Shown here: piece after piece, positions 439 through 63,497 of the stretch
How the letters are laid out: every line of letters starts with the position of its first letter
Position numbering within the stretch: position 1 is the stretch's first letter
NCBI RefSeq assembly: GCF_044704955.1
Contig: NC_091990.1
Coordinates: forward strand, 5,828,001 to 5,892,000
Reading direction: 5' to 3'
Origin: Pristiophorus japonicus
Taxonomy: Eukaryota
Length of the DNA stretch: 64,000 nt
Program-made: the position numbers and the translations under genes
Notes under the pieces: generated by a model
The model's input: only the letters and a program-made list of their open reading frames with translations
Databases searched by the model: none
What the model was told of the DNA's origin: nothing

Positions 439-3310
439 AAACATAGAAACATAGAAAATAGGTGCAGGAGTAGGCCATTCGGCCCTTCTAGCCTGCACCG
501 CCATTCAATGAGTTCATGGCTGAACATGCAACTTCAGTACCCCATTCCTGCTTTCTCACCATACCTCTTGATTCCCCTAGTAGTAAGGACTTCATCTAAC
601 TCCTTTTTGAATATATTTAGTGAATTGGCCTCAACAACTTTCTGTGGTAGAGAATTCCACAGGTTCACCACTCTCTGGGTGAAGAAGTTTCTCCTCATCT
701 CGGTCCTAAATGGCTTACCCCTTATCCTTAGACTGTGTCCCCTGGTTCTGGACTTCCCCAACATTGGGAACATTCTTCCTGCATCTAACCTGTCGAACCC
801 CGTCAGAATTTTAAACGTTTCTATGAGGTCCCCTCTCATTCTTCTGAACTCCAGTGAATACAAGCCCAGTTGATCCAGTCTTTCTTGATAGGTCAGTCCC
901 GCCATCCCGGGAATCAGTCTGGTGAACCTTCGCTGCACTCCCTCAATAGCAAGAATGTCCTTCCTCAGGTTAGGAGACCAAAACTGTACACAATACTCCA
1001 GGTGTGGCCTCACCAAGGCCCTGTACAATTGTAGCAACACCTCCCTGCCCTTGTACTCAAATCCCCTCGCTATGAAGGCCAACATGCCATTTGCTTTCTT
1101 AACCGCCTGCTGTACCTGCATGCCAACCTTCAATGACTGATGTACCATGACACCCAGGTCTCGTTGCACCTCTCCTTTTCTTAATCTGTCACCATTCAGA
1201 TAATAGTCTGTCTCTCTGTTTTTACCACCAAAGTGGATAACCTCACATTTATCCACATTATACTTCATCTGCCATGCATTTGCCCACTCACCTAACCTAT
1301 CCAAGTCGCTCTGCAGCCTCATAGAATCCTCCTTGCAGCTCACACTGCCACCCAACTTAGTGTCATCCGCAAATTTGGAGATACTACATTTAATCCCCTC
1401 GTCTAAATCATTAATGTACAGTGTAAACAGCTGGGGCCCCAGCACAGAACCTTGCGGTACCCCACTAGTCACTGCCTGCCATTCTGAAAAGTCCCCATTT
1501 ACTCCTACTCTTTGCTTCCTGTCTGACAACCAGTTCTCAATCCATGTCAGCACACTACCCCCAATCCCATGTGCTTTAACTTTGCACATTAATCTCTTGT
1601 GTGGGACCTTGTCGAAAGCCTTCTGAAAGTCCAAATATACCACATCGACTGGTTCTCCCTTGTCCACTCTACTGGAAACATCCTCAAAAAATTCCAGAAG
1701 ATTTGTCAAGCATGATTTCCCTTTCACAAATCCATGCTGACTTGGACCTATCATATTACCTCTTTCCAAATGCACTGCGATGACATCCTTAATAATTGAT
1801 TCCATCATTTTACCCACTACCGATGTCAGGCTGACCGGTCTGTAATTCCCTGTTTTCTCTCTCCCTCCTTTTTTAAAAAGTGGGGTTACATTGGCTACCT
1901 TCCACTCCATAGGAACTGATCCAGAGTCAATGGAATGTTGGAAAATGACTGTCAATGCATCCACTATTTCCAAGGCCACCTCCTTAAGTACTCTGGGATG
2001 CAGTCCATCAGGCCCTGGGGATTTATCGGCCTTCAATCCCATCAATTTCCCCAACACAATTTCCAGACTAATAAGGATTTCCCTCAGTTCCTCCTCCTTA
2101 CTAGACCCTCCGACCCCTTTTATATCCGGAAGGTTGTTTGTGTCCTCCTCAGTGAATACCGAACCAAAGTACTTGTTCAATTGGTCCGCCATTTCTTTGT
2201 TCCCCGTTATGACTTCCCCTGATTCTGACTGCAGGGGACCTACGTTTGTCTTTACTAACCTTTTTCTCTTTACATATCTATAGAAACTTTTGCAATCCGT
2301 CTTAATGTTCCCTGCAAGCTTCTTCTCGTACTCCATTTTCCCTGCCCTAATCAAACCCTTTGTCCTCCTCTGCTGAGTTCTAAATTTCTCCCAGTCCCCG
2401 GGTTCGCTGCTATTTCTGGCCAGTTTGTATGCCACTTCCTTGGCTTTAATGCTATCCCTGATTTCCCTTGATAGCCACGGTTGAGCCACCTTCCCTTTTT
2501 TATTTTTACGACAGACAGGAATGTACAATTGTTGTAGTTCATCCATGCGGTCTCTAAATGTCTGCCATTGCCCATCCACAGTCAACCCCTTCAGTATCAT
2601 TCGCCAATCTATCCTAGCCAATTCACGCCTCATACCTTCAAAGTTACCCTTCTTTAAGTTCTGGACCATGGTCTCTGAATTAACTGTTTCATTCTCCATC
2701 CTAATGCAGAATTCCACCATATTATGGTCACTCTTCCCCAAGGGGCCTCGCACAACGAGATTGCTAATTAATCCTCTCTCATTACACAACACCCAGTCTA
2801 AGATGGCCTCCCCCCTAGTTGGTTCCTCGACATATTGGTCTAAAAAACCATCCCTTATGCACTCCAGGAAATCCTCCTCTACCGTATTGCTTCCAGTTTG
2901 GTTAACCCAATCTATGTGCATATTAAAGTCACCCATTTTAACTGCTGCACCTTTATTGCACGCACCCCTAATTTCATGTTTGATGCCCTCCCCAACATCA
3001 CTACTACTGTTTGGAGGTCTGTACACAACTCCCACTAACGTTTTTTGTCCTTTGGTGTTCTGCAGCTCTACCCATATAGATTCCACATCATCCAAGCTAA
3101 TGTCCTTCCGAACTATTGCCTTAATTTGCTCCTTAACCAGCAATGCTACCCCACCTCCTTTTCCTTTTATTCTATCTTTCCTGAATGTTGAATACCCCTG
3201 GATGTTGAGTTCCCAGCCCTGATCATCCTGGAGCCACGTCTCCGTAATCCCAATCACATCATATTTGTTAACATCTATTTGCACAGTTAATTCATCCACT
3301 TTATTGCGGA
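439..3310 (-). mobile_element. CR1 LINE, 5'-truncated at the start of ORF2
   Basis: (TTTCTATG)n tail, 3' hairpin and open ORF2. Confidence 0.97.
534..3299 (-). CDS. CR1 ORF2 (APE endonuclease + reverse transcriptase), 921 aa, uninterrupted, missing only the first few residues
   Basis: ITETWL, GDFN and SDHN endonuclease motifs; GVPQGSVLGP and KFADD RT motifs; C-terminal RTRGHSL...FFTQRVVNLWNSLP. Confidence 0.95.
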   Translation of the reverse strand: MDELTVQIDVNKYDVIGITETWLQDDQGWELNIQGYSTFRKDRIKGKGGGVALLVKEQIKAIVRKDISLDDVESIWVELQNTKGQKTLVGVVYRPPNSSSDVGEGIKHEIRGACNKGAAVKMGDFNMHIDWVNQTGSNTVEEDFLECIRDGFLDQYVEEPTRGEAILDWVLCNERGLISNLVVRGPLGKSDHNMVEFCIRMENETVNSETMVQNLKKGNFEGMRRELARIDWRMILKGLTVDGQWQTFRDRMDELQQLYIPVCRKNKKGKVAQPWLSREIRDSIKAKEVAYKLARNSSEPGDWEKFRTQQRRTKGLIRAGKMEYEKKLAGNIKTDCKSFYRYVKRKRLVKTNVGPLQSESGEVITGNKEMADQLNKYFGSVFTEEDTNNLPDIKGVGGSSKEEELREILISLEIVLGKLMGLKADKSPGPDGLHPRVLKEVALEIVDALTVIFQHSIDSGSVPMEWKVANVTPLFKKGGREKTGNYRPVSLTSVVGKMMESIIKDVIAVHLERGNMIGPSQHGFVKGKSCLTNLLEFFEDVSSRVDKGEPVDVVYLDFQKAFDKVPHKRLMCKVKAHGIGGSVLTWIENWLSDRKQRVGVNGDFSEWQAVTSGVPQGSVLGPQLFTLYINDLDEGIKCSISKFADDTKLGGSVSCKEDSMRLQSDLDRLGEWANAWQMKYNVDKCEVIHFGGKNRETDYYLNGDRLRKGEVQRDLGVMVHQSLKVGMQVQQAVKKANGMLAFIARGFEYKGREVLLQLYRALVRPHLEYCVQFWSPNLRKDILAIEGVQRRFTRLIPGMAGLTYQERLDQLGLYSLEFRRMRGDLIETFKILTGFDRLDAGRMFPMLGKSRTRGHSLRIRGKPFRTEMRRNFFTQRVVNLWNSLPQKVVEANSLNIFKKELDEVLTTRGIKRYGEKAGMGY

Positions 3311-4380
3311 AGATGCCTGTGTGTGGATTTTTTTAACGTGGGGTGGCCGTTGCACACCAGCCACCACACGGGCTTGACAGAGCGAGGTCTTGAACCAGTG
3401 GCAAGGGTTAACCAGGACGACTGGAGACCTGCTCTGCTGCACAGACCTAGTGCGCTCACATATCGCAGTGTGGGCTGGGCCCTCGCCTCTCCTGGGCCCC
3501 AAACTCGCACCTCTCCTGGGCCCCGATCACGTCGCTCTGCAATCTCTCGCCGCTCCTTCGCCCCGACCTCGCTGCTCCTGCTGTACCTGCCCGCGTTCCA
3601 ATCACCCTCCCCCACAGCACTAGGTACCCTCCCCACGAGAACATTGGTCCCAGCCCTGCTCAGGTGGAAATCCCCTGACTCGTGCAGGTCCTGCCGGCTC
3701 CACAATTGATTTAGCAACGTGTCTAATCCAGCTTTTTGGCATCGATAGAAGCAACAATTGTCCTTTCTACTTGAGAAAGCAGAGAGCAGCAGTGCTGCTG
3801 TTCATTTCTGATGTGTCAATATCACAAGCTTGTGACGATGCGTCGCAATATAATGGATGCCATATTATCATTAGGGACATTGCATTTCAGTGTTTAGCAA
3901 ACGCAGCAGAAAGGTATATAAATGCTTTTCCATATTGAGTGTCTGTCATTAACTAAAAGACTGCACTCATCACCAGCCCTCCCAGCTGTTGTCTGTCTCA
4001 GTGGAAGTGGTGATTGTGCCGTAATAGGATCGTGAAAAATAACACTTGTGATGATGTAACAACCGATTGTGGAACTCACTCCCACAAGGCACAGTTGAGG
4101 CGAATAGCTTCGATGCATTTAAGGGGGAGCTGGAAAAAGACTGGAAGCGAAAGGGAAACTGGGCACACGGCTATTTCAATGGCCAATGACGAGAGCAAAC
4201 ACGCTAGGAGTGGGTCTGCTTTTATATCAAAGAAAGGTTACCCGATATCATTCACTGCCTGCCTGTGGTTTTCAGTTCATTGCTTTGCTACACCTAGACT
4301 GTGTGAAGTGTATCAAACAGTTCCTTGCCAGGTTAGTCTCCCAGAAAATGCCAGGGATTCAGTCAAAAGCTACTGTAAAA

Positions 4381-29210: not shown

Positions 29211-29471
29211 AATCATCTTCTCTTATGGTGGTGTAATCTAATTGCTTCCTGGGTTCTTTGCTTAAGAGTTCATAGCAACACTTTGCTATTTAGAAATAGT
29301 TGGTTTATTAGCAAAGGTTTAACAATCAAACTACACATTACCAGTTAATCCACCAGGCTCACAACCACCTGCCCCATCGTGGATCCCCCAAACCCAACTG
29401 GCTGGAGTTTTATTGAGTCTTGTGAGCATCACGTGACTGGCTAAGCCACTCACAATGCAACAGCTCTACAA

Positions 29472-30329
29472 CTCTTTCTGTTGTAAACAAAATAAACAGT
29501 TAAATCAAGTGCCCCCTGATCTGGGGGACACTCCAAACACTTTTCAATGCCCTTTTTTGTTTTTAGTTTTTTGGGGGGTTTTTTGTGCTTTTTTTTTGTG
29601 TTTTTTTTTGGGGCACTAAAACTATAAATTTTACAAGTGCCCCCTGGCTAAAAGGTGGGGGGCACTAAAACCCGGCAATAAAACAAATTTAACTTTAAAA
29701 CATATCAAATCAAATTAAAATTTGGTTGCCAGGGTAATGATGCACTGCAGTCCCTCCGGCGCCCACCGCTTCCTCGCTGGACGGCTCCGGAGAGAACAGA
29801 GCCCCGTAATATTCACGGGCCCTGTTGTTGACGCCCTCCGGATCCGAGACGAGAGAGCCGTCGTCGGCCAGCAGCGTCAAGAGCTGCTTACGGACACCCT
29901 GTCTTTTTTCCAGCGAGTAGAAGAAGGGGGAGCCGCGGTCCAGACCCCGCAGGAACCGGATCCGCGACCTCACGAACGCGCCTCGGGACCCGACGAACTG
30001 CAGGTCCTTCAGCGCGGCCTTCTTCGCTTCGTACACCGTCCGCAGGGCCGGGTCCTGGACGACTTGACCGAGACGGGATTCCAGGTCGAGCACCTCCTTT
30101 TCTAGGCGCCCGACTCTGGCCGCCCGCCTCTTGGTCGACCCCCTCGCGTACTCTTGACAGAAGACGCGGACGTGAGCCTTGCCCACGTCCCACCATAGCC
30201 TCAAGGAGGGGAAGCCCCCCTGCTTCCTTCTCCAGTCGGCCCAGAATCGACGGAACGAGTCCCGGAACCGCACGTCCTCCAGCAGCTGATTGTTAAAGTG
30301 CCAGTACGCGGACCCCGTCCTCGCGCGGA
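29472..30329 (-). mobile_element. Tx1-clade LINE, 5'-truncated and internally deleted
   Basis: YWHFNNQLLED... joined at GAGGAAGCG to the ORF2 end and 3' UTR. Confidence 0.9.
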
Positions 30330-30344
30330 GCAACAGCTCTACAA

Positions 30345-33300
30345 CTCTTTTGGGGAAAACATAATAAATTAAATCAAGTGTCCCCCGATCTGGGGGACAC
30401 TCCAAACACTTTTCACGTGCACTTTTTTGGGGGTTTTTTGGGTGATTTTTGTGGTTTTTTGGGGGGTTTTTTGGGCACTAAAATCATAATTTTTCAAGTG
30501 CCCCCTATAAAAGGGGAGGGGGACACTAAAACAGGCATTTAAAATAAATTAGACTTTAGAACATATAAAATCAAATTAAAATTTGGTTGCCGGGGGTGAT
30601 GATGCACTCCAGTCCCTCCGGCGCCCACCTCTCGGGGAAGGCCGCGAGCGTACCGGTGGACACCGCGTGCTCCATCTCCAAGGACACCCTGGCCCGGATG
30701 TAGGCGCGGAAGAGAGGCAGCCAGTCGGGCTGAATGACCCCCTCGACCGCCCGCTGCCTGGACCGGCTGATGGCCCCCTTGGCCGTGCCCAGGAGCAGTC
30801 CTACGAGGAGGCCCTCGGACCTACCCGCTCCCCTCCGCACAGGGTGCCCAAAGACCAGGAGTGTGGGACTGAAGTGCAACCAGAATTTGAAGAGCAGCCC
30901 CTTCAGATATCGGAAGAGGGGCTGCAACCTCGCACATTCCATAAAAACATGGAACACGGACTCCTCCAGACCGCAGAAATTGCAGGCGGCCTGGGAGCCC
31001 GTGAACCGGCTTAAAAATTTATTGCACGGCACTGCTCCGTGCACCACCCTCCAGGCCAAGTCCCCGATAAATCGTGGGAGGACTCCCGCGTAGAGTGCAC
31101 TCCATTAGGGACCCCCGCCTCCTCCGGACGGCAAGATGGTATGCCATGACGTGTCCGGATGGCAGACGAGGATGGCAAAGTTGAGAGTGTGCAGGAGCAG
31201 CCCGTACAGGAAACCCCTCCGCGCAGAACTGATTTCCCCGAGGCGGCTCAAGTTGTGAGGCGCCGGCCCCCGAGGGAGGTTCCGGGGTTTGGCGCCGATG
31301 AGGAATTCCGTCCGGACGGGGGTCAGTTCGGACGGGATCTCCCCACGTGCTTGAGCCTCCTCGTCGCACCTAACGGAGTCAGGGCCCAGAGCTGTTTTTA
31401 GCGACTCGATGGCATCGGCCGCGCGGCGGACGTCGGCCGAATTTAGGCGCCGTGCCAGCGTGTCTGGCGCCATCCAGCCCGTTCCTCCGCCATCGAGCAG
31501 GTCCCTGACCCTGGTCACCTCACCAGCCACAGCCCTCTCTTCCGACCGCCACATAAAACCTCGGTCGTGGAGGTACGGATTCCCGAGCAGCGGCTCCTGC
31601 AGGACAGCCGCCACTCCAGCCGGTGGAGAGCTGCGCTTGGTGGAGACTTTGTTCCAGACCCTGGTGAGTTCCTTGTAAAAGACAGGCAGCCCCTGGACGG
31701 CGGTCCTGACGCCCCCCGAGCTCACAAACAGGAGCTGCGTGTCGTAGTTGAGGCCGTGCTGCTGGTGGAAGAAATACGTCGCCAGAGCACGCCACCTGGG
31801 AGGGGGCTCGACGTAAAGGTATCCCTGCAGGGTCTGAAGATGGAAAGTCGCGAGCTGGGCGCTGACGCACACCAACGACTGACCGCCCTCCCTCAGCGGG
31901 AGACTCAAGACCGTGGCAGAGACCCAGTGCTTCCTGTTGTTCCAGAAGAAGTCCACCAGCTTCTTCTGTATCTTGGCAACAAACGCAGGGGGAGGGGTCA
32001 AAGTGACCAGCCGGTACCACAGCATAGCGGCCACCAGCTGGTTTATGACTAGCGCTCGACCCCTGTAGGACAGCACTCGGAGCAGTCCTGTCCAGCGCCC
32101 TAGGCGAGCGGCGACCTTGGCCTCCAGTTCCTGCCAGTTCGCCGGCCAGGCTCCCTCGTCGGGGCTAAGGTAGACTCCCAGATAGAGGAGATGGGTCGTG
32201 CTCCAGGCAAAAGGCCTGAGCTCCTCCGGCAGGGAGTCCACCCGCCACTGACCCACCAGGAGTCCGGAACATTTCTCCCAGTTGATCCTGGTGGAGGATG
32301 CGGGCGAGTAAATCTCCTGGCACTCACGCATCCTCCGCAGGTCAGCGGGATCCTCTACCGTGAGGAGCACGTCATCGGCGTAAGCCGAGAGGACGACCTC
32401 CACGCCCGGCCCTTGCAGAGCCAGTCCCGTCAACCTCGTCCGCAAGAGGCGCAGGAAAGGCTCCACGCAAACAGCATATAACTGGCCGGACATGGGGCAT
32501 CCCTGGCGCACCCCTCTCCTAAAGCGAAGGGGCGCCGTCAAGGACCCGTTAACCTTAATCAGACACTCCGCGGCGGCGTACAAAAGTCGGATCCGGGCGA
32601 CGAAATGCGTCCCGAACCCGAAAGCGTGCAGAGTTCCGAGCAGATAGTCGTGATCCACCCTGTCGAACGCCTTCTCTTGGTCGAGAGATAGGAAGGCGAC
32701 CGACAGACCAGCCTCCTGGGAACAATGGATGAGGTCCCGGACCAGATGGATGTTATCGTGGATTGTCCGGCCCGGGACCGTGTAGGACTGGTCGGGGTGG
32801 ATCATGTGGTCCAGCACGGCACCAAGGCGAGCAGACATCGACCTGGCGAAAATTTTGTAGTCCGTGCTGAGGAGGGAGACCGGGCGCCAGTTCTTAAGGA
32901 GGCGGAGATCGCCCTTCTTAGGCAGCAGGACGATGACTGCCCTGCGCCAAGAGAGGGGCATCTCCCCGGTCGCCAGACTTTCCCCCAGGACCCGCGCGTA
33001 GTTGCCCCCCAGGACGTCCAAGAACGCCCTGTGGAACTCCACGGTCAGCCCGTCCAGCCCCGGGGCTTTTCCCCTCGAGAGCCGGTCGAGGGCGCCGGTC
33101 AGCTCCGCCTGGCTTACCGGAGCTTCCAGATTTTCGGCGCCCTCCGGGCCGACCTTCGGCAGGTCCTCCCACAAAACTCTACGCGCTTCCTCGCTGGACG
33201 GCTCCAGAGAGAACAGAGCCCCGTAATATTCACGGGCCCTGTTGCTGACGCCCTCCGGATCCGAGACGAGAGAGCCGTCGTCGGCCAGCAGCGTCAAGAG

Positions 33301-33746
33301 CTGCTTACGGCCACCCTCTCTTTTTTCCAGCGAGTAGAAGAAGGGGGAGCCGCGGTCCAGATCCCGCAGGAACCGGATCCGCGACCTCACGAACGCGCCT
33401 CGGGACCCGACGAGCTGCAGGTCCTTCAGCGCGGCCTTCTTCGCTTCGTACACCGTCCGCAGGGCCGGGTCCTGGACGACTTGACCGAGACGGGACTCTA
33501 GGTCGAGCACCTCTTTTTCTAGGCGCCCGACTCTGGCCGCCCGCCTCTTGGTCGACCCCCTCGCGTACTCTTGACAGAAGACGCGGACATGAGCCTTGCC
33601 CACGTCCCACCATAGCCTCAAGGAGGGGAAGCCCCCCTGCTTCCTTCTCCAGTCGGACCAGAATCGACGGAACGAGTCCTGGAACCGCACGTCCTCCAGC
33701 AGCCGGTTGTTAAAGTGCCAGTACGCGGACCCCGTCCTTACGCGGA
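30345..33746 (-). mobile_element. Tx1-clade (L1 group) LINE, 5'-truncated just after the endonuclease
   Basis: RT and CCHC domains; 3' UTR with GGGGGCACT hairpin repeats. Confidence 0.95.
30571..33745 (-). pseudogene. Tx1 ORF2 (RT + CCHC zinc knuckle) with one in-frame TAA at 31105
   Basis: KNWRPVSLL, LDQEKAFDRV, GVRQGCPMS, AYADD, CNFCGLEESVFHVFMEC. Confidence 0.93.
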
Positions 33747-34079
33747 GCGACAGCTCTACAATCCTGTGGGCATCCTCACAGGTGCATACGCTACGGAAAT
33801 ATTTTGTATTGAGCTGCCTATCTCACCATAATAAAATGAGATTGAAAAATCAGATTTGTTTCAATTCAAAACTGTGGAGTTTTTTTTTTAAATTGTTTTT
33901 GTGCAGTGTCTGATCCCCTCCATCTTTCCCTTCCTGCTATAAGCTGGAGGTTTTGAAGATGTAAGCTTGATGTCACCAAACTAACGCATCTTTATTATTC
34001 AGTTCTTCCTGTCATGCAACGTTTCCTTCCCTGCGGAGCCCGGTCTTTCCCGAGGTCACATACACAAAACACTGCGGAG

Positions 34080-35542: not shown

Positions 35543-36704
35543 ATGGGGCCTGTCCTTTCTCACCTTCTCTTGATGACCAATTACATGCAGCAGACTCGAG
35601 ATCACTGAAGGAACGCTGCACTGCATTATGTGCCCTATGTGAGACGTGACAGACTGATGAGGAGGACCAGACATTACACCCCCCGCAAGTACAGGGAGAA
35701 GCATTCTTACCTCGACTTGCCTGACATCACCTGCCTTCGGAGACTGTGCTTCCACAAAGAGGTTATCACTGAGGTATGCCAGCTGATAAGGGGAGATATG
35801 CAGCCTGCCAGCACCATCAGCACTGCACTGTCCATCAAGGTCAAAGTCACTGCGGCACTGTCGTTCTACGCCTCGGGTTCTTTTCAGGCCACAGCTGGCG
35901 ACATTTGCGAACTTTCTCAGCATGTCATACAGCGCTGCATTAGACAGGTCACTGAAGCCCTGTGCGCACATAGGAGGGACTTGGTCAGCTTCCTTATGAC
36001 CAGGGAGGCACAGAGCGAGAGGGCTCTAGGATTCTCCAGAATTTCAAACTTCCCCAAGGTGCAGGGAACAATAGACTGTACGCACATCGTGATGCGAGCA
36101 CCTTTTCAGGATGCAGAGGTTTTCAGGAACCACAAGGAATTCCATTCCCTGAATGTCCAATTCGTTGTCGACCACCAGCAAATTATACTGGCAGTGAGTG
36201 CTCAATTTCCAGGCAGCATTCATGATGCTCACATCCTGCGTGAGAGCACTGTATCTGACTTGTTTAACAATCAGCCACAAGGTCAATGCTGGATGCTTGG
36301 TGACAAAGGATATGGCCTCGCCACCTGGCTGATGACCCCCCCCTGCGTGACACCCACATCGAAGCCGAGAGGCGATACAACGAGAGCCACAGAGCCACTC
36401 GCAATATCGTGGAGAAAACCATTGGAGTGCTTAAACAGCACTTTAGATGCCTGGACCACTCAGGAGGCGAGCTCCAATACCACCCTGAGCAGGTAGCTCA
36501 ATTCGTGGTGGTGTGCTCCATGCTACACAACTTGGCTATCAGGTGGGGACAAGAATTGCCTGATGAGTCTGACAGTCCACCTCACCAGAGAGAGTAAGAG
36601 GAGGATGAGGAGGCTGATGCTGTAGACTGCATGAAAGGGCCAGTGGTGGCATGATAGCTGCAAGAGCCTTATGTCAGGAGCTCATCAACGATCGCTTTGC
36701 CTGA
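35543..36704 (+). pseudogene. Harbinger DDE transposase with stops and a frameshift near 36340
   Basis: GTIDCTHI, FHSLNVQ, PGSIHDAHI, LGDKGY, IGVLKQHFRCL, MLHNLAI. Confidence 0.93.
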
Positions 36705-38042: not shown

Positions 38043-38740
38043 AACATGGAAACATAGAAAATAGGTGCAGAAGTAGGCCATTCGGTCCTTCGAGCCTGCA
38101 CCACCATTGAACAAGATCATGGCTGATCACCCACCCCAGCACCTCCCCGACCCCCCCAGCCGCAAGGACCACATCCAACTTCCTCCCGAACACATCCAAT
38201 GAACTGGCATCAACAACTCTCGGCGGCAGGGAACCCCACAGGCCAACAACTCCCAGAGTGAAGAAGTCTCTCCCCATCCCAGCAATAAACAGCCCACCCC
38301 CCCATTCCAAGAACATGCCCCCCCCCCCACACATGCTCCAGACCCACCCAACACCCGCAACACTCCCCCCGCACCCAACCCGCCCCGTCTCGTCAGAATC
38401 CTTCCCAAATGCCGAACACCCCCGGATGTCGAGCCCCCAGCCCCGGCCACCCCGGAGCCACGCCCCCGCGATGCCAACCACACCACATCCACCAACCGCC
38501 ATCTGCGCAGTCAACCCGTCCACCCCACTCTGAACACTCCCCGCACCGAGGCACAGAGCCCCCAGACCAGCCCCTCCAACACACTTCGCACCCCCCCCCA
38601 CAGACCTCCGCTGCAATGTGGCCCCTCCTGTCCCCCGCCCTGGGTTTCTCCACCCCCCCCACACCTCCACCACTCTCCCCTCCATCCCCCGCTCCCGTCT
38701 CCCCTCATCTTCCCTCTGCCTCCCCGCACAGGCTCCCATC
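38043..38740 (-). mobile_element. Internally deleted CR1 copy with massive A-to-G change on its sense strand
   Basis: Aligns to 44440-44790 and 3175-3305 with differences that are mostly T>C on the plus strand. Confidence 0.9.
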
Positions 38741-38907
38741 TTGGGGGCGGTAACCTTCTGGGGCAGGGAATTTTAGCCCCCAGCCTGGAAGTCCTGCTCC
38801 CGCCACAGAATTGGCCTTACCCCCCCTCAATGGAAGGGGAGTGTAATTTCCCACACTCCACTTCCTTTGGGGGCAGTTACCGGGGCACGACTGGATGCTC
38901 CTGTGAC

Positions 38908-41900
38908 AGACGAGCTGCAAGCTCTGCAAAACCTGCTAACCACCACGTGGCAGAGGAAGATCGGTCCATGGTGGATCAAAGCAATTTCGAGCCACAGAGA
39001 GAAGAGACAGATGCTGAAGTACACTGGGTGCACACATTTTCGACGAAATGTCCACCTATAATGCTAAATGTAAAATTGAATGGCTTACCCGTAGCCATGG
39101 AACTGGACACTGGCGCTAGCCAATCCATCATGAGTAAAAAGATGTTTGAGAGACTGTGGTGCAACAAGGCACTCAGACCAGCCCTGAGCCCCATCCACAC
39201 GAAACTGAGAATGTACACCAAAGAGCTTATCACTGTCCTGGGCAGCGCCATGGTCAAGGTCACCTACGAGGGCACAGTGCACGAACTGCCACTCTGGATT
39301 GTCCCGGGCGATGGCCCCACACTGCTTGGAAGGAGCTGGCTGGGCAAAATCCGCTGAAACTGAGATGACATCCGAGCGCTATCACATGTCGATGAGGCCT
39401 CATGTACCCAGGTTCTTAACAAATTTCCTTCCCTTTTTGAGCCAGGCATTGGAAACTTTTCTGGGGCGAAGGTGCGGATCCACTTGGTCCCAGAGGCACG
39501 ACCCATTCACCACAAGGCGCGAGCGGTACCTCACATGATGAGGGAGAGAGTGGAAATCGAGCTGGACAGGCTGCAATGTGAGGACATCATCTCCCCAGTG
39601 GAATTCAGCGAGTGGGCCAGCCCGATTGTTCCAATATTCAAAAGTGATGGCACGGTCAGGATTTGCGGCGATTATAAAGTAACTATTAATCGTTTCTCGC
39701 TACAGAACCAAATCCCACTACCTAAGGCAGACGACCTGTTTGCGATGCTGGCAGGAGGCAAGCTCGACCTGACTTCGGTCTACATGACGCAGGAGCTGGA
39801 GGAGTCTTCGAAGGGCCTCACCTGCATCAACACGCAAAAGGGACTGTCCATCTACAACAGATGCCCGTTTGGAATTCGGTCGGCTGCAGCGATTTTCCAG
39901 AGAAACATGGAGAGCCTTCTCAAGTCGGGATCACGCATGGTGGTTTTTCAGGACGACATATTGGTCATGAGTCGGGACACCGTCGAGCACCTACAAAACC
40001 TGGAGGAGGTCCTTCAGCGACTGGATTGCGTAGGGCTGCGGCTGAAAAGGTTGAAATGCGTCTTCATGGCAATAGAAGTGGAGGTTTTGGGGAGAAAGAT
40101 CGCGGCGGACGGCATTCGGCCCACAGACACCAAACAGAGGCTATCAGGAATACGCCCAGGCCACAGAACGTCACGGAGCTGCGGTCGTTCCTGGGACTCC
40201 TCAACTATTTTAGTAACTTCCTTCCGGGATTAAGCACCCTCTTAGAGCCCCTACATGTGTTATTGCGCAAAGGTGAGAACTTGGTATGGGGTAAAAAAAC
40301 AAGTAATTGCTTTTGAGAAAGCCAGAAACATTTTATGCTCCAACAAGCTGCTTGTATTGTATAACCCGTGTAAAAGACTTGTGCTAGCTTGTGATGCCTC
40401 ATCGTACGGAGTCGGGTGTGTATTACAACAAGCTAACATTGCGGGGAAGTTGCAACCTGTCACCCGTGCCTCCAGGAGCTTGTCTAAGTCCGAGAGGGCC
40501 TACAGCATGATTGAGAAAGAGGCATTAGCGTGTGTGTTCGGGGTACAGAAAATGCATCAGTACCTGTTTGACCTCAAATTTGAGCTGGAAACCAATCACA
40601 AGCCCCTCATATCCCTGTTCGCTGAAAATAAGGGGATAAATACTAATGCCTCAGCCCGCATACAAAGGTGGGCACTTGCGCTATCAGCATATAACTATAC
40701 CATCCGCCACATGCCAGGCACCGAGAACTGTGCGGATGCTCTCAGTCGACTACCATTGCCCACCACGGGGGTGGAAATGGTGCAGCCTGCAAACTTGCTG
40801 ATGGTGGCACAGTCCGCAGACTTGTTGATGGTCATGGAAGCGTTTGAAAATGATAAATCACCTGTCACGGCCCGCCAGATTAGGACTTGGACCAGCCAAG
40901 ATCCTCTGCTGTCCCTAGTAAAAAACTGTGTACTGCATGGGAGCTGGGCCAGCATCCCTGTTGAAATGCAAGAGCTAATCAAGCCGTTCCAGCGGCGAAA
41001 GGACGAGCTGTCCATTCAGGCAGACTGACTGTTGTGAGGTAATCGCGTAGTGCTACCCAAAAAGGGCAGTGAGACATTCATCTCGGATCTCCACAGCACA
41101 CACCCGGGTACAGAAATGATGAAAGCGATAGCCAGATCTCATGTGTGATGGCCCGGTATCGACTCTGACTTAGAGTCCTGTGTACGACAATGTAGCGTAT
41201 GTGCTCAGTTGAGCAACGCGCCCAGAGAGGCACCACTAAGTTTGTGGTCCTGGCCCTCCAGACCATGGTCGAGGATCCATGTCGACTATGCGGGCCCGTT
41301 TCTCGGTAAAATGTTCCTGGTGGTGGTGGATGCTTTTTCAAAATGGATTGAATGTGAAATAATGTCGGGAAGCACCGCCACCGCCACCATTGAAAGCCTG
41401 AGGGCCATGTTTGCCACCCATGGCCTGCCTGACATACTGGTCAGCGACAACGGGCCATGTTTCACCAGTGCCGAATTTAAAGAATTCATGACCCGCAATG
41501 GGATCAAACATGTCACCTCGGCCCTGTTTAAACCAGCCTCCAATGGGCAGGCAGAGCGGGCAGTACAAACAATCAAACAGAGCCTTAAACCAGTCACAGA
41601 AGGCTCACTCCAAACCCGCCTGTCCAGAGTACTGCTCAGCTACCGCACGAGACCCCACTCACTCACAGGGGTGCCCCCGGCTGAGCTACTCATGAAAAGG
41701 ACACTTAAAACCAGACTCTCGCTGGTTCACCCTAACCTGCATGATCAGATAGAGAGCAGGCGGCAGCAACAAAATGTAAACGATGGTCGCGCCACTGTGT
41801 CACGGGAAATTGATCTGAATGACCCTGTGTATGTGCTAAACTATGGACATGGTCCCAAGTGGATCGCGGGCACGGTGATAGCTAAAGAAGGGAATAGGGT

Positions 41901-41964
41901 GTTTGTAGTCAAACTAGACAATGGACAAATTTGCAGAAAGCACCTGGACCAAACGAGGCTCTGA
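38908..41964 (+). pseudogene. Gypsy pol (protease, RT, RNase H, integrase), disrupted
   Basis: ELDTGAS, RICGDYK, FQDDIL, CDASSYG, IEKEALA, HVDYAGP, SDNGPCF, SNGQAER. Confidence 0.95.
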
Positions 41965-47597: not shown

Positions 47598-48326
47598 AGG
47601 CAACGGAATTCAGCTCCTTGGCCCCGATAGTTATGGCCGCTTTCTTTTTAACAATGGTGTCCGCCCACTGTCGAGGCTCAGGGGCCGATTTTCAGTAGGG
47701 CCTCCGCCCCTCCAAGTGCCGCCCAAAAGTGCCGCCGATGGCCGCCAAGGTACCAGACGGCACTTTGGGCAGGATATTCATCGCCGAGGTCCCACGAAGG
47801 TCAGTGGATGGCAAATGGACGACGTACGCCGTCAATCTGGGCGGCAGCGGGCGGGAGCTCTCATTCCCGGCGGCAGAGGCGCTTGCTGCCCAAGTGCCAC
47901 CGAGGACGGAGCCGGGCCCAGGGAGGGTCGACGACCTGAAAAAAATATCACCAATGAAAAATACAAAAACTATCGGGAGACCTTCAGGGGACCCCATGCA
48001 GGTAAATCACTGTGGAAAATGTTTTTCAAATTGTTCACTTATCTTTTTTTCTGGTTCTTCAGATTCACCGTCGGGGACAGACCGGCCTCCAGCCAGCGGC
48101 CCGCCCCCGTTCTCCCGCCGACTCCCGCCCGCAGGAATCTGGGAGCTCAGTAGGCAGGAGGCCAATCGCGCCACTCGGCCCTCTGCTGATGTCCCTCGGC
48201 GCTTCCCAGCGACTCTCCCCTCCCGCTCGCTCCAGGCCACCCCGAAAGTGGCACGGGGCAGATCTTCAGGAGGAATGTCGGCAGGAGCGGGCGGCAGTAG
48301 GCGGTGAGGTGATGAATTCCAGCCCC
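47598..48326. mobile_element. GC-rich MITE(s)
   Basis: GGGGCCGATTTT at 47681; GAATTCCAGCCCC end. Confidence 0.6.
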
Positions 48327-48509
48327 TCAGACTTTGAATATATTCAAGAAATCGATCGATAGATTTTTGGATATTAAGGGAACCCAGGGATCTGGGGATC
48401 GGGTGGGAAAATGGACTTGAGGTCGAAGATCAGCCGTGATCTCACTGAATGGCGGAGCAGGCTCGAGGGGACATAGGGCCGACTCCTGCTCCTAATTCTC
48501 ATGTTCTTC

Positions 48510-50327
48510 CGGCGAGGCCCACGGTGTTCGATGTCTTGGTGCGTTGGTGGTGTGGGCAGTGTGTGTGTGCACCGGCAGGACACAAGCTGTGACGTCAGTC
48601 TGTTGATCCATGACCTGCTATTTTTGGATGTCGCCGCTCCTTTCAAGGCCCTCTCCTAAAGACGCAGGGCTGAACGTGTGTTCAGCTGCACTAGGGACCC
48701 TCCCCCGCAGGGCATCCCCCAGCCCCTCCCAGCGCAAGCAGCGGGATACATCCAACGTGCAGTAACGTTGATTATTGCTTTTGTATTAGCGCCTGCAAAG
48801 TTTGTAGGAGTACTGGGTTGCTGGAGGTGATGTGAAAAGTTGCTGAAGTGTGCAGGGAGGGTTGCTGGAGGTTGGGGAGGTGTTGGCTGTGACTGGAGGG
48901 CCTCGGAGTCCACCACTTGTTGCCCGCCGATTGGCTGCTGCTGTCTGCGAGTGTGACCTGCCTACGGGTGGGAGCTGTCTGTGGTGGGAGCTGTCTGTGG
49001 TGGGAGCTGTCTGTGGTGGGAGCTGTCTGTGGTGGGAACTGTCTGTGGGTGGGAGCTGTCTGTGGTGGGAGCTGTCTGTGGTGGGAGCTGTCTGTGGGTG
49101 GGAGCTGTCTGTGGTGGGAACTGTCTGTGGTGGGAGCTGTCTGTGGTGGGAGCTGTCTGTGGTGGGAGCTGTCTGTGGTGGGAACTGTCTGTGGTGGGAA
49201 CTGTCTGTGGTGGGAGCTGTCTGCGGGTGGGAACTGTCTGTGGTGGGAACTGTCTGTGGTGGGAGCTGTCTGTGGTGGGAACTGTGTGGTGGGAACTGTC
49301 TGTGGTGGGAGCTGTCTGTGGTGGGAACTGTCTGTGGTGGGAACTGTGTGGTGGGAGCTGTCTGTGGTGGGAGCTGTCTGTGGTGGGAGCTGTCTGTGGT
49401 GGGAGCTGTCTGCGGGTGGGAACTGTCTGTGGTGGGAACTGTGTGGTGGGAGCTGTCTGCGGGTGGGAACTGTCTGTGGTGGGAACTGTCTGTGGTGGGA
49501 GCTGTCTGCGGGTGGGAACTGTCTGTGGTGGGAACTGTCTGTGGTGGGAACTGTGTGGTGGGAGCTGTCTGCGGGTGGGAACTGTCTGTGGTGGGAACTG
49601 TCTGTAGTGGGAACTGTCTGTGGTGGGAACTGTGTGGTGGGAGCTGTCTGTGGTGGGAGCTGTCTGTAGTGGGAGCTGTCTGTGGGTGGGAGCTGTCTGT
49701 GGTAGGAGCTGTCTGTGGTGGGAGCTGTCTGTGGTTGGAACTGTCTGTGGTGGGAGCTGTCTGTGGTGGGAGCTGTCTGTGGGTGGGAGCTGTCTGTGGT
49801 GGGAACTGTGTGGTGGGAGCTGTCTGTGGTGGGAGCTGTCTGTGGGTGGGAGCTGTCTGTGGTAGGAGCTGTCTGTGGTGGGAGCTGTCTGTGGTTGGAA
49901 CTGTCTGGGGTGGGTGCTGTCTGTGGTGGGAGCTGTCTGTGGTGGGAGCTGTCTGTGGGTGGGAGCTGTCTGTGGTGGGAGCTGTCTGGGGTGGGAACTG
50001 TCTGTGGTGGGAGCTGTCTGTGGTGGGAATCACCTTGCCCTACAAGGGAACGAGAAGTGTGTCAGTGAGTGCGGTGCGATGTGTTTTGCTGATGTGCCTG
50101 TCATGGTTGAATAACTGGCAGCGTGTGCAAGGTGTGGGGGGATGGGTGTGTGGCTTGCAGCAGCAGTAAGTGTGTGAGGCCGGGGGGTGAAGCTATGAAT
50201 GTGAGGTGCGAGCTGTGCTTGATCGAGATTGTTGGTAGGGGGGTGTGGTACGTTGACCGTGTGTGAGGCTCGTGCTGCAGTTGGTGGGAGACGGTATTTG
50301 AAGGTGCATTCACTGACCTTGACCTTG
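48510..50327 (-). mobile_element. Possible degenerate Harbinger Myb/SANT gene region flanking the minisatellite
   Basis: AAG|GTCAGTGAATGC donor-like site at ~50315; AANRRATSGG exon-like piece at ~48910-48955. Confidence 0.35.
48967..50028. repeat. G-rich minisatellite, 16-bp unit GTGGTGGGARCTGTCT with 17- and 12-bp variants
   Basis: Direct reading, ~1.06 kb. Confidence 0.97.
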
Positions 50328-51022
50328 TGCATGCAACACAACAAGTTAGTATGCAGGTACAGCAAGTGATCAGGAAGGCAAATGGAATGTTGGCCTTTAT
50401 TGCAAGGGGGATAGAGTATAAAAGCAGGGAAGTCCTGCTACAACTGTACAGGGTATTGGTGAGGCCACACCTGGAGTACTGTGTACAGTTCTGGTCTCCG
50501 TATTTAAGGAAGGATATACTTGCATTGGAGGCTGTTCAGAGAAGGTTCACTAGGTTGATTCCGGAGATGAGGGGATTGATTTATGAAGATAGATTGAGTA
50601 GGTTGGGCCTCTACTCATTGGAGTTCAGAAGAATGAGAGGTGATCTTATCGAAACATATAATATACTGAGGGGGCTCGACAAGATGGATGCAGAGAGGAT
50701 ATTTCCACTCATCGGGGAAACTAAAACTAGGGGACATAGTCTTAGAATAAGAGGCCGCCCATTTAAAACTGAGATGAGGAGGAATTTCTTCTCTCAGAGG
50801 GTTGTAAATCTGTGGAATTCTCTGCTCCAGAGAGCTGTGGAGGCTGGGTCATTGAATATATTTAAGGCGGAGATAGACAGAATTTTGAGCGATAAGGGAG
50901 TAAAGGACTATGGGGAGCGGGAGCTGAGCCCATGATCAGATCAGCCATGACCTTATTAAATGGCGGAGCAGGCTCAAGGGGCTGAATGGCCGACTCCTGC
51001 TCCTATTTCTTATGTTCTTATG
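50327..51022 (+). mobile_element. CR1 3' fragment with an open ORF2 C-terminus
   Basis: 202-aa ORF matching the ORF2 C-terminus. Confidence 0.93.
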
Positions 51023-61312: not shown

Positions 61313-61827
61313 CCTGACTGTATTCCCCTCTTTACTCAATTTCATTAATATGCACGTTTCCTGCAGAATAATGAACACAATGCTGGCTGATTATCTGCTC
61401 CCTTCCTTCGCCAGATACAATCAAGGAGCCCACTCCAGCCCTGCTCAAGTTCAGCCAGTTCTTTGCAGAACCTGATGATCGGCAATATGAATTAGTCCGT
61501 GCAAAGCTCAACAGGAAGCAAGTCTTCACAGTTACGCGCTGTCCACGATGCGGTCTCCTCTACATTGGGGTGACCAAGCGTAGATTGGGTGACCGTTTTG
61601 CGGAACACCTCCGTTCAGTACGTAAGTGTGACCCCGAGCTTCCGGGCGCCTGTCACTTTAATTCCCCGCTCCACTCCCACTCTGCCCTCTCCGCCCTTGG
61701 TCTCCTACACTGTTCCAATGAAGCTCAATGCAAACTCGAGGAACAGCCCCTCATCTTTTGTCATTTAATCTCTCCTGCCTTCCACCCTATCACAGACCTT
61801 CCCTTTTGTTCTTTCCTCCCCTCCCCC

Positions 61828-63497
61828 TGTAATGTCTGCACCCGTGAGTATGCTAACAAGTTTGTAGAGCTGTTGCACACGCAGCTCCTGTTTGTGAGCC
61901 TGGGGGGCGTCAGGACCGCCATGCAGGGAGTGCCTGTGTTTTACCAGGAACTCACCAGGGTCTGGAACAGAGTGGCCACCAAACGCAGCTCTCCACCGTC
62001 TGGAGTGGCGGCTGTCCTGCAGGAGCCACTGCTCAGGAATCCGTACCTCCATGACCGAGGTTTTAGGTGGCAGGCGGACGAGAGGGCTGTGGCTGGTGAG
62101 GTGACCAGGGTCAGGGACCTGCTCGATGGCGGAGGAGCGGGCTGGATGGCGCCAGACATGCTGGCGCGGTACCTAAACTGGGCCGATGTCTGCCGCGTGG
62201 CCGATGCCATCGAGTCGCTAAAAACAGCTTTAGGCCCTGACTCCGTTAGGTGCATCAAGGAGGCTCAAGCAGGTGGGGAGATCCCGTCCAAACTGACCCC
62301 CGTCCGGACGGAATTCCTCATCGGCGCCAAGCCCTGAAACCTCCCTCGGGAGCCGGTGCCTCACAACTTGAGCCTCCTCGAGGAAATCCTCTCCGTGCCT
62401 TTCAGTTCCGCGCGGAGGGGTTTCCTGTATGGGCTGCTCCTGCACACTCTCCACCTTGCCATCCTCATCTGCCGTCCGGACACGCCATGGCGTACCATCT
62501 TGCCGTCCAGAGGAGGCGGGGGTCACTAATGGAGTGCACTCTACGCGGGAATCCTCCCACTATTTATTGGGGACTTGGCCTGGAGGGTGTTGCACGGAGC
62601 AGTCCCGTGCAATAAGTTTTTAAGTCAGTTCACAGGCTCCCAGGCCGCCTGTAATTGCTGCGGTCTGGAGGAGTCCGTGTTCCATGTTTTTATGGAATGT
62701 GCGAGGTTGCAGCCCCTCTTCCGATATCTGAAGGGGCTGCTCTTCAAATTCTGGTTGCACTTCAGTCCCACACTCCTGGTCTTTGGGCACCCTGTGCGGA
62801 GGGGAGCGGGTAGGTCCGAGGGCCTCCTCGTAGGACTGCTCCTGGGCACGGCCAAGGGTGCCATCAGCCGGTCCAGGCAGCGGGCGGTCGAGGGGGTCGT
62901 TCAGCCCGACTGCCTGCCTCTCTTCCGCGCGTACATCCGAGCCAGGGTGTCCCTGGAGATGGAGCACGCGGTGTCCACCGGTACGCTCGCGGCCTTCCGC
63001 GAGAGGTGGGCGCCGGAGGGACTGGAGTGCATCATCACCCCCGGCAACCAAATTTTAATTTGATTTTAATGTCTAAAGTTTAATTTGTTTAAGTTGTCGG
63101 TTTTAGTACCCTCCCTCCCTTTTAGCCAGAGGGCACTTGTATATTGTGTTTCTAGTGCCCTCAAAAAAAACCCAAGGGGGCATTTGAAAAGTTTTTGGAG
63201 TGTGCCCCCTGCCCCCCCCCCCTTTAATCAGGGGGCACTTGATTACTGATACAACTCAAAATAGTTGTAGAGCTGTTGCATTGTGAGTGGCTTAGCCAGT
63301 CATGTGATGTTCACAAGACTCAATAAAACCCCAGCCAGTTGGGTCCATGTCATCCACGATGAGGTTGTGAGCCTAGTGGATGAACTGGTAATGTGTCGTG
63401 TGATTGTTGAACCTTTGTTAATGAACCAACTAGTTCTTAATCGCAATGTGCTGCTATGAATTCTTAAGCAAAGAACCCATGAAGCAAATACATTACA
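61828..63497 (+). mobile_element. Solo LTR (61828-61877 and 63265-63497) with TGTAATG...CATTACA termini
   Basis: Perfect 7-bp inverted termini; AATAAA. Confidence 0.85.
61878..63264 (+). mobile_element. Tx1-clade LINE 3' fragment with 16-bp TSD TTGTAGAGCTGTTGCA
   Basis: Near-identical to 30345-31745; TSD at 61862 and 63265. Confidence 0.95.

Follow-up and report, generated by a model that had tools for sequence, protein, structure and literature searches.

Tx1 Copies in the Window

Analysis of a 64,000-nucleotide stretch of the Pristiophorus japonicus genome (assembly GCF_044704955.1, contig NC_091990.1, forward-strand positions 5,828,001 to 5,892,000; hereafter the window) demonstrated three copies of a long interspersed element (LINE) of the Tx1 type inserted into a repeat that resembles a long terminal repeat (LTR). 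All three copies are bounded by the sequence TTGTAGAGCTGTTGC, with two of them in tandem at locus 1 on the minus strand and one at locus 2 on the plus strand. A previous reading of the window, made from the letters alone (the sequence-only reading), had located this sequence at five places, and all five were recovered, one of them with a mismatch; 0.13 occurrences are expected, and none of 100 shuffles reached five. The reading had also placed the site about 35 bp inside a repeat of about 270 bp. The site is indeed a 14–15-bp target-site duplication that lies 35 bp inside a TG..CA repeat of 274 bp. The features of both loci are listed in Table 1.

Table 1. Parts of the two Tx1-bearing loci of the window (window positions)
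Feature	Position	Strand	Remarks
Locus 1, LTR-like repeat, 3′ portion downstream of the insertion	29232..29456	-	87.7% identity with an empty copy
Locus 1, target-site duplication, 3′ copy	29457..29470	-	14 bp
Tx1 copy A1, 5′-truncated, with 2.6-kb internal deletion	29471..30329	-	Two blocks on the full-length unit
Target-site duplication separating tandem copies A1 and A2	30330..30343	-	
Tx1 copy A2, 3.4 kb, 5′-truncated just past the endonuclease	30344..33746	-	905-codon open frame with the reverse transcriptase (RT) domain
Locus 1, target-site duplication, 5′ copy	33747..33760	-	One mismatch
Locus 1, head of the LTR-like repeat	33761..33795	-	35 bp
Locus 1, upstream hexamer CACCTG	33779..33784	-	Ends 18 nt before the duplication
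Locus 2, head of the LTR-like repeat	61828..61862	+	35 bp
Locus 2, target-site duplication, 5′ copy	61863..61877	+	15 bp
Locus 2 Tx1 copy, 1.39 kb, 5′-truncated	61878..63265	+	Older 3′ untranslated region (UTR) type, 91% to A2
Locus 2, target-site duplication, 3′ copy	63266..63280	+	
Locus 2, LTR-like repeat, 3′ portion, ending CATTACA	63281..63497	+	AATAAA at 63322–63327

Copies A1 and A2 begin at the same element position (starts 3783 and 3785). A2 shares 50% identity over 875 amino acids with ORF2 of Xenopus Tx1L, and a Pfam scan of the window frames indicated that it has lost the endonuclease through its truncation. The repeat copies of the two loci are 89% identical over their aligned 3′ part. 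At locus 2, the 5-bp duplication flanking the repeat matches at four of five positions. The locus 1 repeat starts with CGTAGCG and ends with GATTACA, and its flanks show no 5-bp duplication (GGTGG vs. GAAAT, plus strand); its head and tail may therefore derive from two copies, possibly joined by a rearrangement. An origin of both loci from one segmental duplication, a possibility that the sequence-only reading had itself raised, was rejected because the Tx1 copies are 91% identical, have different 5′ ends, and have flanks in common only in dispersed repeats. The two loci are independent insertions.

The LTR-Like Target Repeat

The 5.92-Gb genome was searched with a 38-mer spanning the motif and the downstream part of the repeat, which gave 1,171 exact matches. 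The first 30 comprised 17 that followed a Tx1 3′ end and 13 that followed the repeat's own head and were thus empty, and 764 exact empty repeat sites were found in the genome. These empty copies exclude a further possibility that had been raised, namely, that the repeat is part of the Tx1 3′ UTR. In the first 100 of 1,026 LTR heads, 47 were filled by Tx1.

Whole empty copies are approximately 274 bp long, with TG..CA termini and 10-bp inverted ends, and the 5-bp duplication around them was exact in 10 of 12 copies, had one mismatch in one, and was absent in one. Together with the internal AATAAA, the termini and the 5-bp duplication fit a solo LTR, which is the likely identity of the repeat judged from its structure. 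The repeat had been described previously as a solo LTR with the ends TGTAATG...CATTACA. The ends, the 5-bp duplication, and the AATAAA bear this description out, but the ends at locus 1 depart from it, and LTR identity is unproven, with no internal region found: no common sequence was detected after the end of the repeat in 31 TGG-selected matches, before its start in 76 purine-selected matches, or among 63 downstream and 61 upstream flanks. Instead, it may be a short DNA transposon of the non-autonomous kind, bounded by 10-bp inverted ends. Gypsy-type pol pieces occurred near some of the loci examined, though never between two paired repeat copies. In the window itself, at 38203–41964 (+), Pfam recognized the protease, RT, RNase H, and integrase of a Gypsy-type pol, spread over four separate frames and unlinked to the 274-bp repeat.

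Identity and Target Specificity of the Element

The full-length unit of this Tx1 lineage is 7.2 kb long, contains two ORFs, and lacks a poly(A) tail. According to Pfam analysis, ORF2 of a copy of family B (a sister family described below) is composed of an Exo_endo_phos domain (residues 13–234) and an RVT_1 domain (519–768). The ORF2 protein shares 49% identity over 99% of its length with Xenopus Tx1L (YTX2_XENLA), its best solved structural relative is L1 ORF2p (E value, 3e-82), and the closest protein fragments (68–71%) come from stingray and horn shark. Based on domain content and the closest named relative, the element is assigned to the Tx1 clade. ORF1 encodes approximately 702 amino acids with a C-x2-C-x4-H-x4-C pattern recognized by eye, and it had no Pfam match. 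The 3′ boundary of the element had been read as AAA(G/T)AG/TTGTAG. This junction was confirmed, but its exact position was not: the last base of the element lies one position further on (..AAAA(G/T)AGT), and the 14–15-bp duplication has TG as its first bases, as is evident from the family B empty site (GGGA/TTC) compared with the 3′ junction (GAGT/TTC) and from off-target sites.

To the extent that the first 30 copies found with an ORF2 31-mer alone (4,065 matches) are representative, Tx1 resides mostly at the repeat: by eye, 23 were located at the repeat site or in arrays on it and seven elsewhere. The motif was present at approximately 68 of 100 junctions of the early 3′ UTR type and at 22 of 72 of the late type of the LTR-targeting family, family A (hand counts; P = 4e-7). 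Unrelated flanks, which the sequence-only reading had named as one outcome that would speak against it, are a minority overall and a majority (about 50 of 72, hand count) in the latest LTR-type subfamily. Nearly all of the non-motif junctions still start with TTG or TTA. Two off-target loci (L031 and L225) represent repeated insertion into another abundant repeat, the site of which resembles the LTR motif.

Tx1 families are regarded as target-specific when more than 20% of their flanks fall in one sequence type (PMC4494074). The share exceeded 20% in the 30 copies, in both 3′ UTR types, and in family B (25 of 28, hand count). Targeting of the repeat is thus real and genome-wide, and the earlier claim of a Tx1 family parasitizing an LTR family is partly supported. 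The pair is not novel in kind; it is a new example of a habit already described in crocodilians (PMC4494074), and the lineage has since moved on to other LINEs.

Sister Families With Other Targets

A 39-mer from a window copy gave 6,327 matches, many of them 7.2 kb apart. Thirteen loci with this spacing were fetched, and the LTR motif was found in none of them. The duplication started with TTCATGCAC in 11 loci (family B) and with TCTGT in two (family C); three of the family B loci (L098, L099, and L100) have flanks in common and could stem from a single event. Exact junctions numbered 15,664 for family B and 1,131 for family C. Family B units are approximately 7.2 kb long, and many have an open ORF1 (702 amino acids) and ORF2 (approximately 1,300 amino acids). 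The targets of both families are endonuclease–RT LINEs, which we take to be of the CR1 type from the style of their sequence, struck just past the RT and at the same position in both LINE families. An endonuclease–RT LINE frame of 932 amino acids in the window (534–3332, minus strand) is related to these targets; amino acid identity between it and the target flanks was 53–92% for family B and 34–69% for family C. The CR1-type target of family B was filled at 78 of 100 sites. In addition, approximately 17 of 100 family B target sites (also L108) began with a tiny insertion consisting of only the last 9–12 element bases between two duplications.

Several features indicate the relative ages of the families. 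CpG decay was 178/691 and 226/1132 in the early A types, 114/881 in late A, and 8/492 in family B. A tree of 91 copies was ladder-like and placed the family B clade (support 0.88) within late A and C, and the terminal branch lengths agreed with the age order. The heads of full-length copies were also layered. Family A heads abutted the LTR motif once in 54 of 58 cases, and the remaining four, at CR1-type sites, still bore part of the motif; family C heads began with the C duplication followed by a remnant of the LTR motif, and family B heads carried a shortened form of both. The nested head remnants, CpG decay, and branch lengths together suggest that the targets were used in the order A, C, B. 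Six of 20 full-length A-type loci (L162, L163, L164, L172, L176, and L179) held only the first 100–250 bases, without ORF2.

A Hexamer at a Fixed Distance Upstream of the Insertion Site

The empty LTR site and the empty family B site both carry TGCACCTG ending 18 nt before the duplication; at locus 2 of the window, the corresponding position (61839–61844) reads CACCCG, with one change. From the LTR and CR1-type sites, the hexamer rule was set as a prediction before off-target loci were fetched, and off-target 5′ junctions were located by a motif-blind script. The loci included 20 of about 50 late-A off-target rows and 18 of 29 early-type rows, both near the tops of their lists, and two from the ORF2 31-mer set. 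The 72 loci gave 48 duplication calls and finally 31 sites, after the exclusion of 24 loci without an automatic call, four that were miscalled or internal (L032, L033, L044, and L209), 11 LTR heads, and two loci of families B and C.

CANNTG ended 17, 18, or 19 nt upstream of the duplication in 17 of the 31 off-target sites (5, 6, and 6, respectively), compared to 0.6 per three-offset window in controls and 47 of 4,327 random TG sites (1.1%). CAGCTG accounted for 11 of these hexamers and CACCTG for four. The motif had been widened from CACCTG after the first off-target set; in the second set, collected after the widening, seven of 14 sites carried CANNTG (control, 0.3). The duplications had a median length of 14 bp, and in the genomic copies, the first base was T in 27 of 30 and the second was G in 26 of 30. 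Consistent spacing was also observed for the sister families: sites L106 and L109 of family C had CATTTG and CACATG, respectively, and the family B off-target site L240 had CAGGTG, each with 18 nt. At L208, an LTR head followed by foreign downstream DNA was still struck by Tx1. Off-target sites keep only the first 2–4 bases of the 15-mer plus the upstream hexamer, which argues that the duplicated 15-mer is not the main site determinant.

The hexamer was further related to occupancy in the 100 LTR heads described above, which were matched with the hexamer left free and scored by hand. It was intact in 34 of 47 filled heads vs. 16 of 53 empty ones (odds ratio, 6; P = 5e-5). We consider it probable that the target is a two-part site, in which a hexamer at a fixed distance and the nick-proximal bases are measured by the ORF2 protein, that is, an R2-like target in a LINE with an apurinic/apyrimidinic endonuclease (APE).

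Recognition of the LTR 15-mer by the endonuclease alone, with the hexamer as a passenger of the repeats struck, would account for the presence of the 15-mer in 23 of the 30 unbiased copies and most early-type junctions, and Xenopus Tx1L offers a precedent, as its endonuclease, when assayed in vitro, nicks hardly any site other than its own (PMC1950540). This explanation appears improbable, however: off-target sites retain no more of the 15-mer than TG(T) but have the hexamer within DNA that is otherwise unrelated, occupancy varies with the state of the hexamer among LTR heads whose 15-mers are identical, and the families use wholly different duplications although only seven of 235 endonuclease residues differ.

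The hexamer could also be read by the host. An E-box-binding factor seated on it, a basic helix-loop-helix dimer or a Snail/ZEB-type zinc-finger protein, might tether the Tx1 particle or bend the DNA, and the spacing would then reflect a contact between host and element. The canonical CANNTG form of the hexamer, the predominance of the palindrome CAGCTG, the CAGGTG in both family B off-target flanks (L240, and L239, which has no scorable duplication), and an ORF2 C-terminus devoid of a recognized DNA-reading module are all in line with such a factor. On the other hand, the family A off-target sites contained CACCTG four times and its reverse, CAGGTG, not once at 17–19 nt, and near-misses keep the CA(G/C) half, suggesting, in small numbers, a directional reading; the tight spacing is also kept through all subfamilies. 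We regard a host factor, the main alternative as reader of the hexamer, as unlikely compared to measurement of the two-part site by the ORF2 protein.

Basis of the Target Switch

The nick-proximal bases differ among the families: family A, which is older and of the LTR type, has TGT, family C has TCTG, and the young family B has TTC. The sister families are approximately 95% identical in ORF2, and family A copies share 93–97% identity with a B unit in the endonuclease. Comparison of 16 A and 13 B copies revealed seven diagnostic residues in the 235 of the endonuclease and 46 in the 1,299 of ORF2, with a cluster at 855–972; E15G, N21D, and I163M were near-fixed endonuclease changes. The endonuclease hairpin loop, defined according to PMC1950540, was considered as the switch and rejected, because the stretch matching the L1 loop carries no diagnostic A/B change except the adjacent I201V, which is polymorphic in family A.

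Alternatively, the nick-proximal switch may be borne by RNA: a transcript that runs into the flanking duplication would pair with the nicked primer, so that a master copy redirects its offspring. This is compatible with the upstream hexamer and competes only as an explanation of the switch. The 3′ and 5′ copies of the duplication differed at position 2 in six of 30 sites vs. 15 of 300 at positions 3–12 (P = 0.007), which hints that the first duplication bases can come from RNA. The missing poly(A) tail and the layered remnants of successive targets at full-length heads agree with this idea, as does the finding that 3′ homology aids priming in R2 (PMC10499050). Conversely, the near-fixed endonuclease changes and the residue cluster separate A from B, stacked family B copies occur, too, at an off-target site starting with TAT or GAT (L212), and the LTR tail was carried to none of the 31 off-target sites. 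An RNA-borne switch is thus quite possible, though we lean slightly against it. The same 0 of 31 leaves the proposal that the element uses the downstream AATAAA of the LTR for 3′ processing unsupported. More tentative, and in our view rather doubtful, is the combined claim that an APE-type LINE uses a part of ORF2 other than the endonuclease to read an E-box-like hexamer two helical turns upstream of its nick while flank bases on the RNA set the nick-proximal choice, so that switching needs no protein change.

At the 5′ junctions of L098, L099, L100, and L110, family B heads directly follow the hexamer, without the 18-nt spacer and the duplication; such heads perhaps stem from a master that carried upstream target sequence.

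Arrays and Shared Truncation Points

In 32 neighboring pairs of copies, the upstream copy was of the later type in 13, the downstream copy in three (two with miscalled ends), and both were of the same type in 16 (P = 0.02). These results indicate that arrays grow at their 5′ side, as expected if the 5′ junction, with its hexamer and duplication, is a reusable site, as in Drosophila R1. Neighbors also shared truncation points. Among 34 pairs in which the downstream copy was truncated, 22 had start positions on the element that lay no more than 15 nt apart (mean after shuffling, 1.5), including A1/A2 at locus 1 and pairs of different subfamilies. Pairs of the latter kind do not result from simple duplication. 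The longest example described here is an array of nine family B units (approximately 60 kb) in one CR1-type copy (G000:C1:9710120-9769915), the two 5′-most units of which have one common truncation point.

Amplification of a Tx1-filled repeat as a unit, with arrays arising by unequal crossing-over, would likewise yield shared truncation points. Four neighboring units of one array are 99.8–100% identical, and L098, L099, and L100 have common flanks; runs of near-identical units may be duplications in some cases. As a general account, however, it is very improbable, since filled heads precede many different Tx1 start points, same-start neighbors are often of different subfamilies and several percent apart (L234, L014, L021, L024, and A1/A2), and younger types lie upstream.

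Proposed Mechanism

According to the two-part reading, the site would be chosen by an E-box-like hexamer, mostly CA(G/C)CTG, whose end lies 18 ± 1 nt upstream of the first nick, with 2–4 bases right at the nick as the second signal. The upstream DNA might be gripped by the thumb, wrist, and C-terminal part of the ORF2 protein, which would put the endonuclease about two helical turns away; in the L1 complex, upstream DNA is anchored by thumb and wrist together with the CTD (PMC7617806), where a reader would most naturally reside. A second nick would follow approximately 14 nt downstream, and the top-strand end may then anneal to the cDNA wherever homology exists. At the head of full-length copies, part of the target duplication persists, and this remnant could provide the homology for a precise 5′ joint. 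After insertion, the hexamer and the duplication would stand together at the 5′ junction, allowing new copies to stack upstream of old ones. At array joints, the top-strand end including the first bases of the old copy likely anneals to the new cDNA, and the 5′ end of the neighbor is thereby taken over. The LTR head would be a high-copy site that fits the rule well rather than a host recognized as such. The lineage would have left the LTR for one CR1-type family and then for another by changing only its short nick-proximal preference, through either a few endonuclease changes or a flank carried on the RNA.

Several observations weigh against this reading. Fourteen of the 31 off-target sites had no CANNTG at 17–19 nt, and 13 had not even a one-mismatch CASCTG; all off-target loci came from the start of one contig. 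The filled vs. empty comparison on the LTR heads of the fetched loci gave only a trend (15/36 vs. 3/18, P = 0.077; for CANNTG, P = 0.24), and in the young CR1-type target, a changed hexamer did not discriminate between filled and empty sites (5/78 vs. 3/22, hand count). The predicted fold of the C-terminal 500 amino acids of ORF2 (mean pLDDT, 71) matched only L1 ORF2p (E value, 6e-6; TM, 0.32) and no known DNA-reading module. Regarding the order of targets, the 91-copy tree was midpoint-rooted without an outgroup and built from copies of this genome only, and its family B clade contains four tips of other types. Finally, sites that fit the two-part rule occur so often in a genome of 5.9 Gb that the rule by itself does not explain the 30–77% of family A copies in the LTR; further determinants must contribute to the LTR share, namely, a longer context, homology at the 5′ end, and the growth of arrays.

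Comparison With Known Systems

In non-LTR elements other than R2, the endonuclease has been taken as the only determinant of the site (PMC10499050). Xenopus laevis Tx1L resembles the present element in combining an APE endonuclease with an RT and in inserting into another mobile element (PMC4494074), but its target is the piggyBac-type Tx1D, and its specificity has been ascribed to the endonuclease (PMC1950540). Tx1 families of the crocodilian Tx1-Mar group also prefer other transposons, with Tx1-8_Crp and Tx1-4_AMi preferring LTR retrotransposons; their tandem insertions sandwich a 16-bp duplication, and related families have different targets (PMC4494074). Unlike the lineage studied here, those families are old (85–87% to consensus), and neither an upstream determinant nor an order of switches is described in the part of that report available to us (PMC4494074).

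R2Bm recognizes an upstream motif (RUM, -34 to -22) at a fixed distance, with a tolerance of about one base, along with RASIN at the nick (PMC10499050). However, R2 has a restriction-like endonuclease and reads RUM via N-terminal zinc-finger/Myb domains and an RT loop (PMC10499050), whereas the Tx1 ORF2 starts with an APE endonuclease and has no zinc-finger/Myb reader domains by Pfam. The Tx1 element thus works like R2 in its two-part targeting but is not an R2 member. Drosophila R1 is an APE-type element that generates a 14-bp duplication, extends its arrays at the 5′ copy of that duplication, and carries target sequence at the 5′ end of its full-length RNA, which leads to precise joints (PMC2718515). 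Its target, in contrast, is 28S rDNA, and copying of a neighbor's truncation point is not described in the accessible text of that report (PMC2718515). In APE-type LINEs of the RTE/Bov-B group, a signal likewise precedes the duplication at a set distance, but it is a thymine stretch approximately 10 nt upstream, looser than the defined hexamer at 18 nt (PMC6007223, PMC13295347), and these elements show no repeat-specific targeting.

No published report of a fixed upstream hexamer in Tx1, an E-box at non-LTR insertions, or an LTR-to-CR1 series was found in a search that left uncovered the Repbase reports, most subscription papers, PMC85248, and the supplements of PMC4494074 with the crocodilian target alignments. 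What is new here is the two-part rule with serial target switching; the repeat pair is a further case of a known habit.

Other Features of the Window

The DNA around the locus 2 repeat (approximately 61500–61820, plus strand) presumably contains a Penelope-type endonuclease remnant, to judge by eye; Pfam gave no match for this segment. A DDE_Tnp_4 transposase fragment was identified at 35609–36496 (+). The region at 48000–50500 has a strong skew (GC skew, 0.35; AT skew, -0.33) with overlapping long frames and is probably a simple repeat.

Significance

The lineage bears on the question of how site-specific LINEs locate and exchange their targets. In P. japonicus, one mobile family fills about half of the sites of an LTR-like family and most of the sites of a CR1-type family, and the youngest family still has intact reading frames and more than 15,000 junctions. 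Three successive targets were used by near-identical families, and the shared upstream signal survives each switch, which narrows the cause of the switch to a small number of residues or of RNA bases. If the choice of the nick is set by RNA, landing in a new hexamer-bearing repeat would re-address the lineage, and each switch would be recorded at the 5′ head of the element. The same rule could then underlie the scattered and seemingly unrelated targets of the Tx1 clade, and the element would represent a compact, partly RNA-addressable insertion system.

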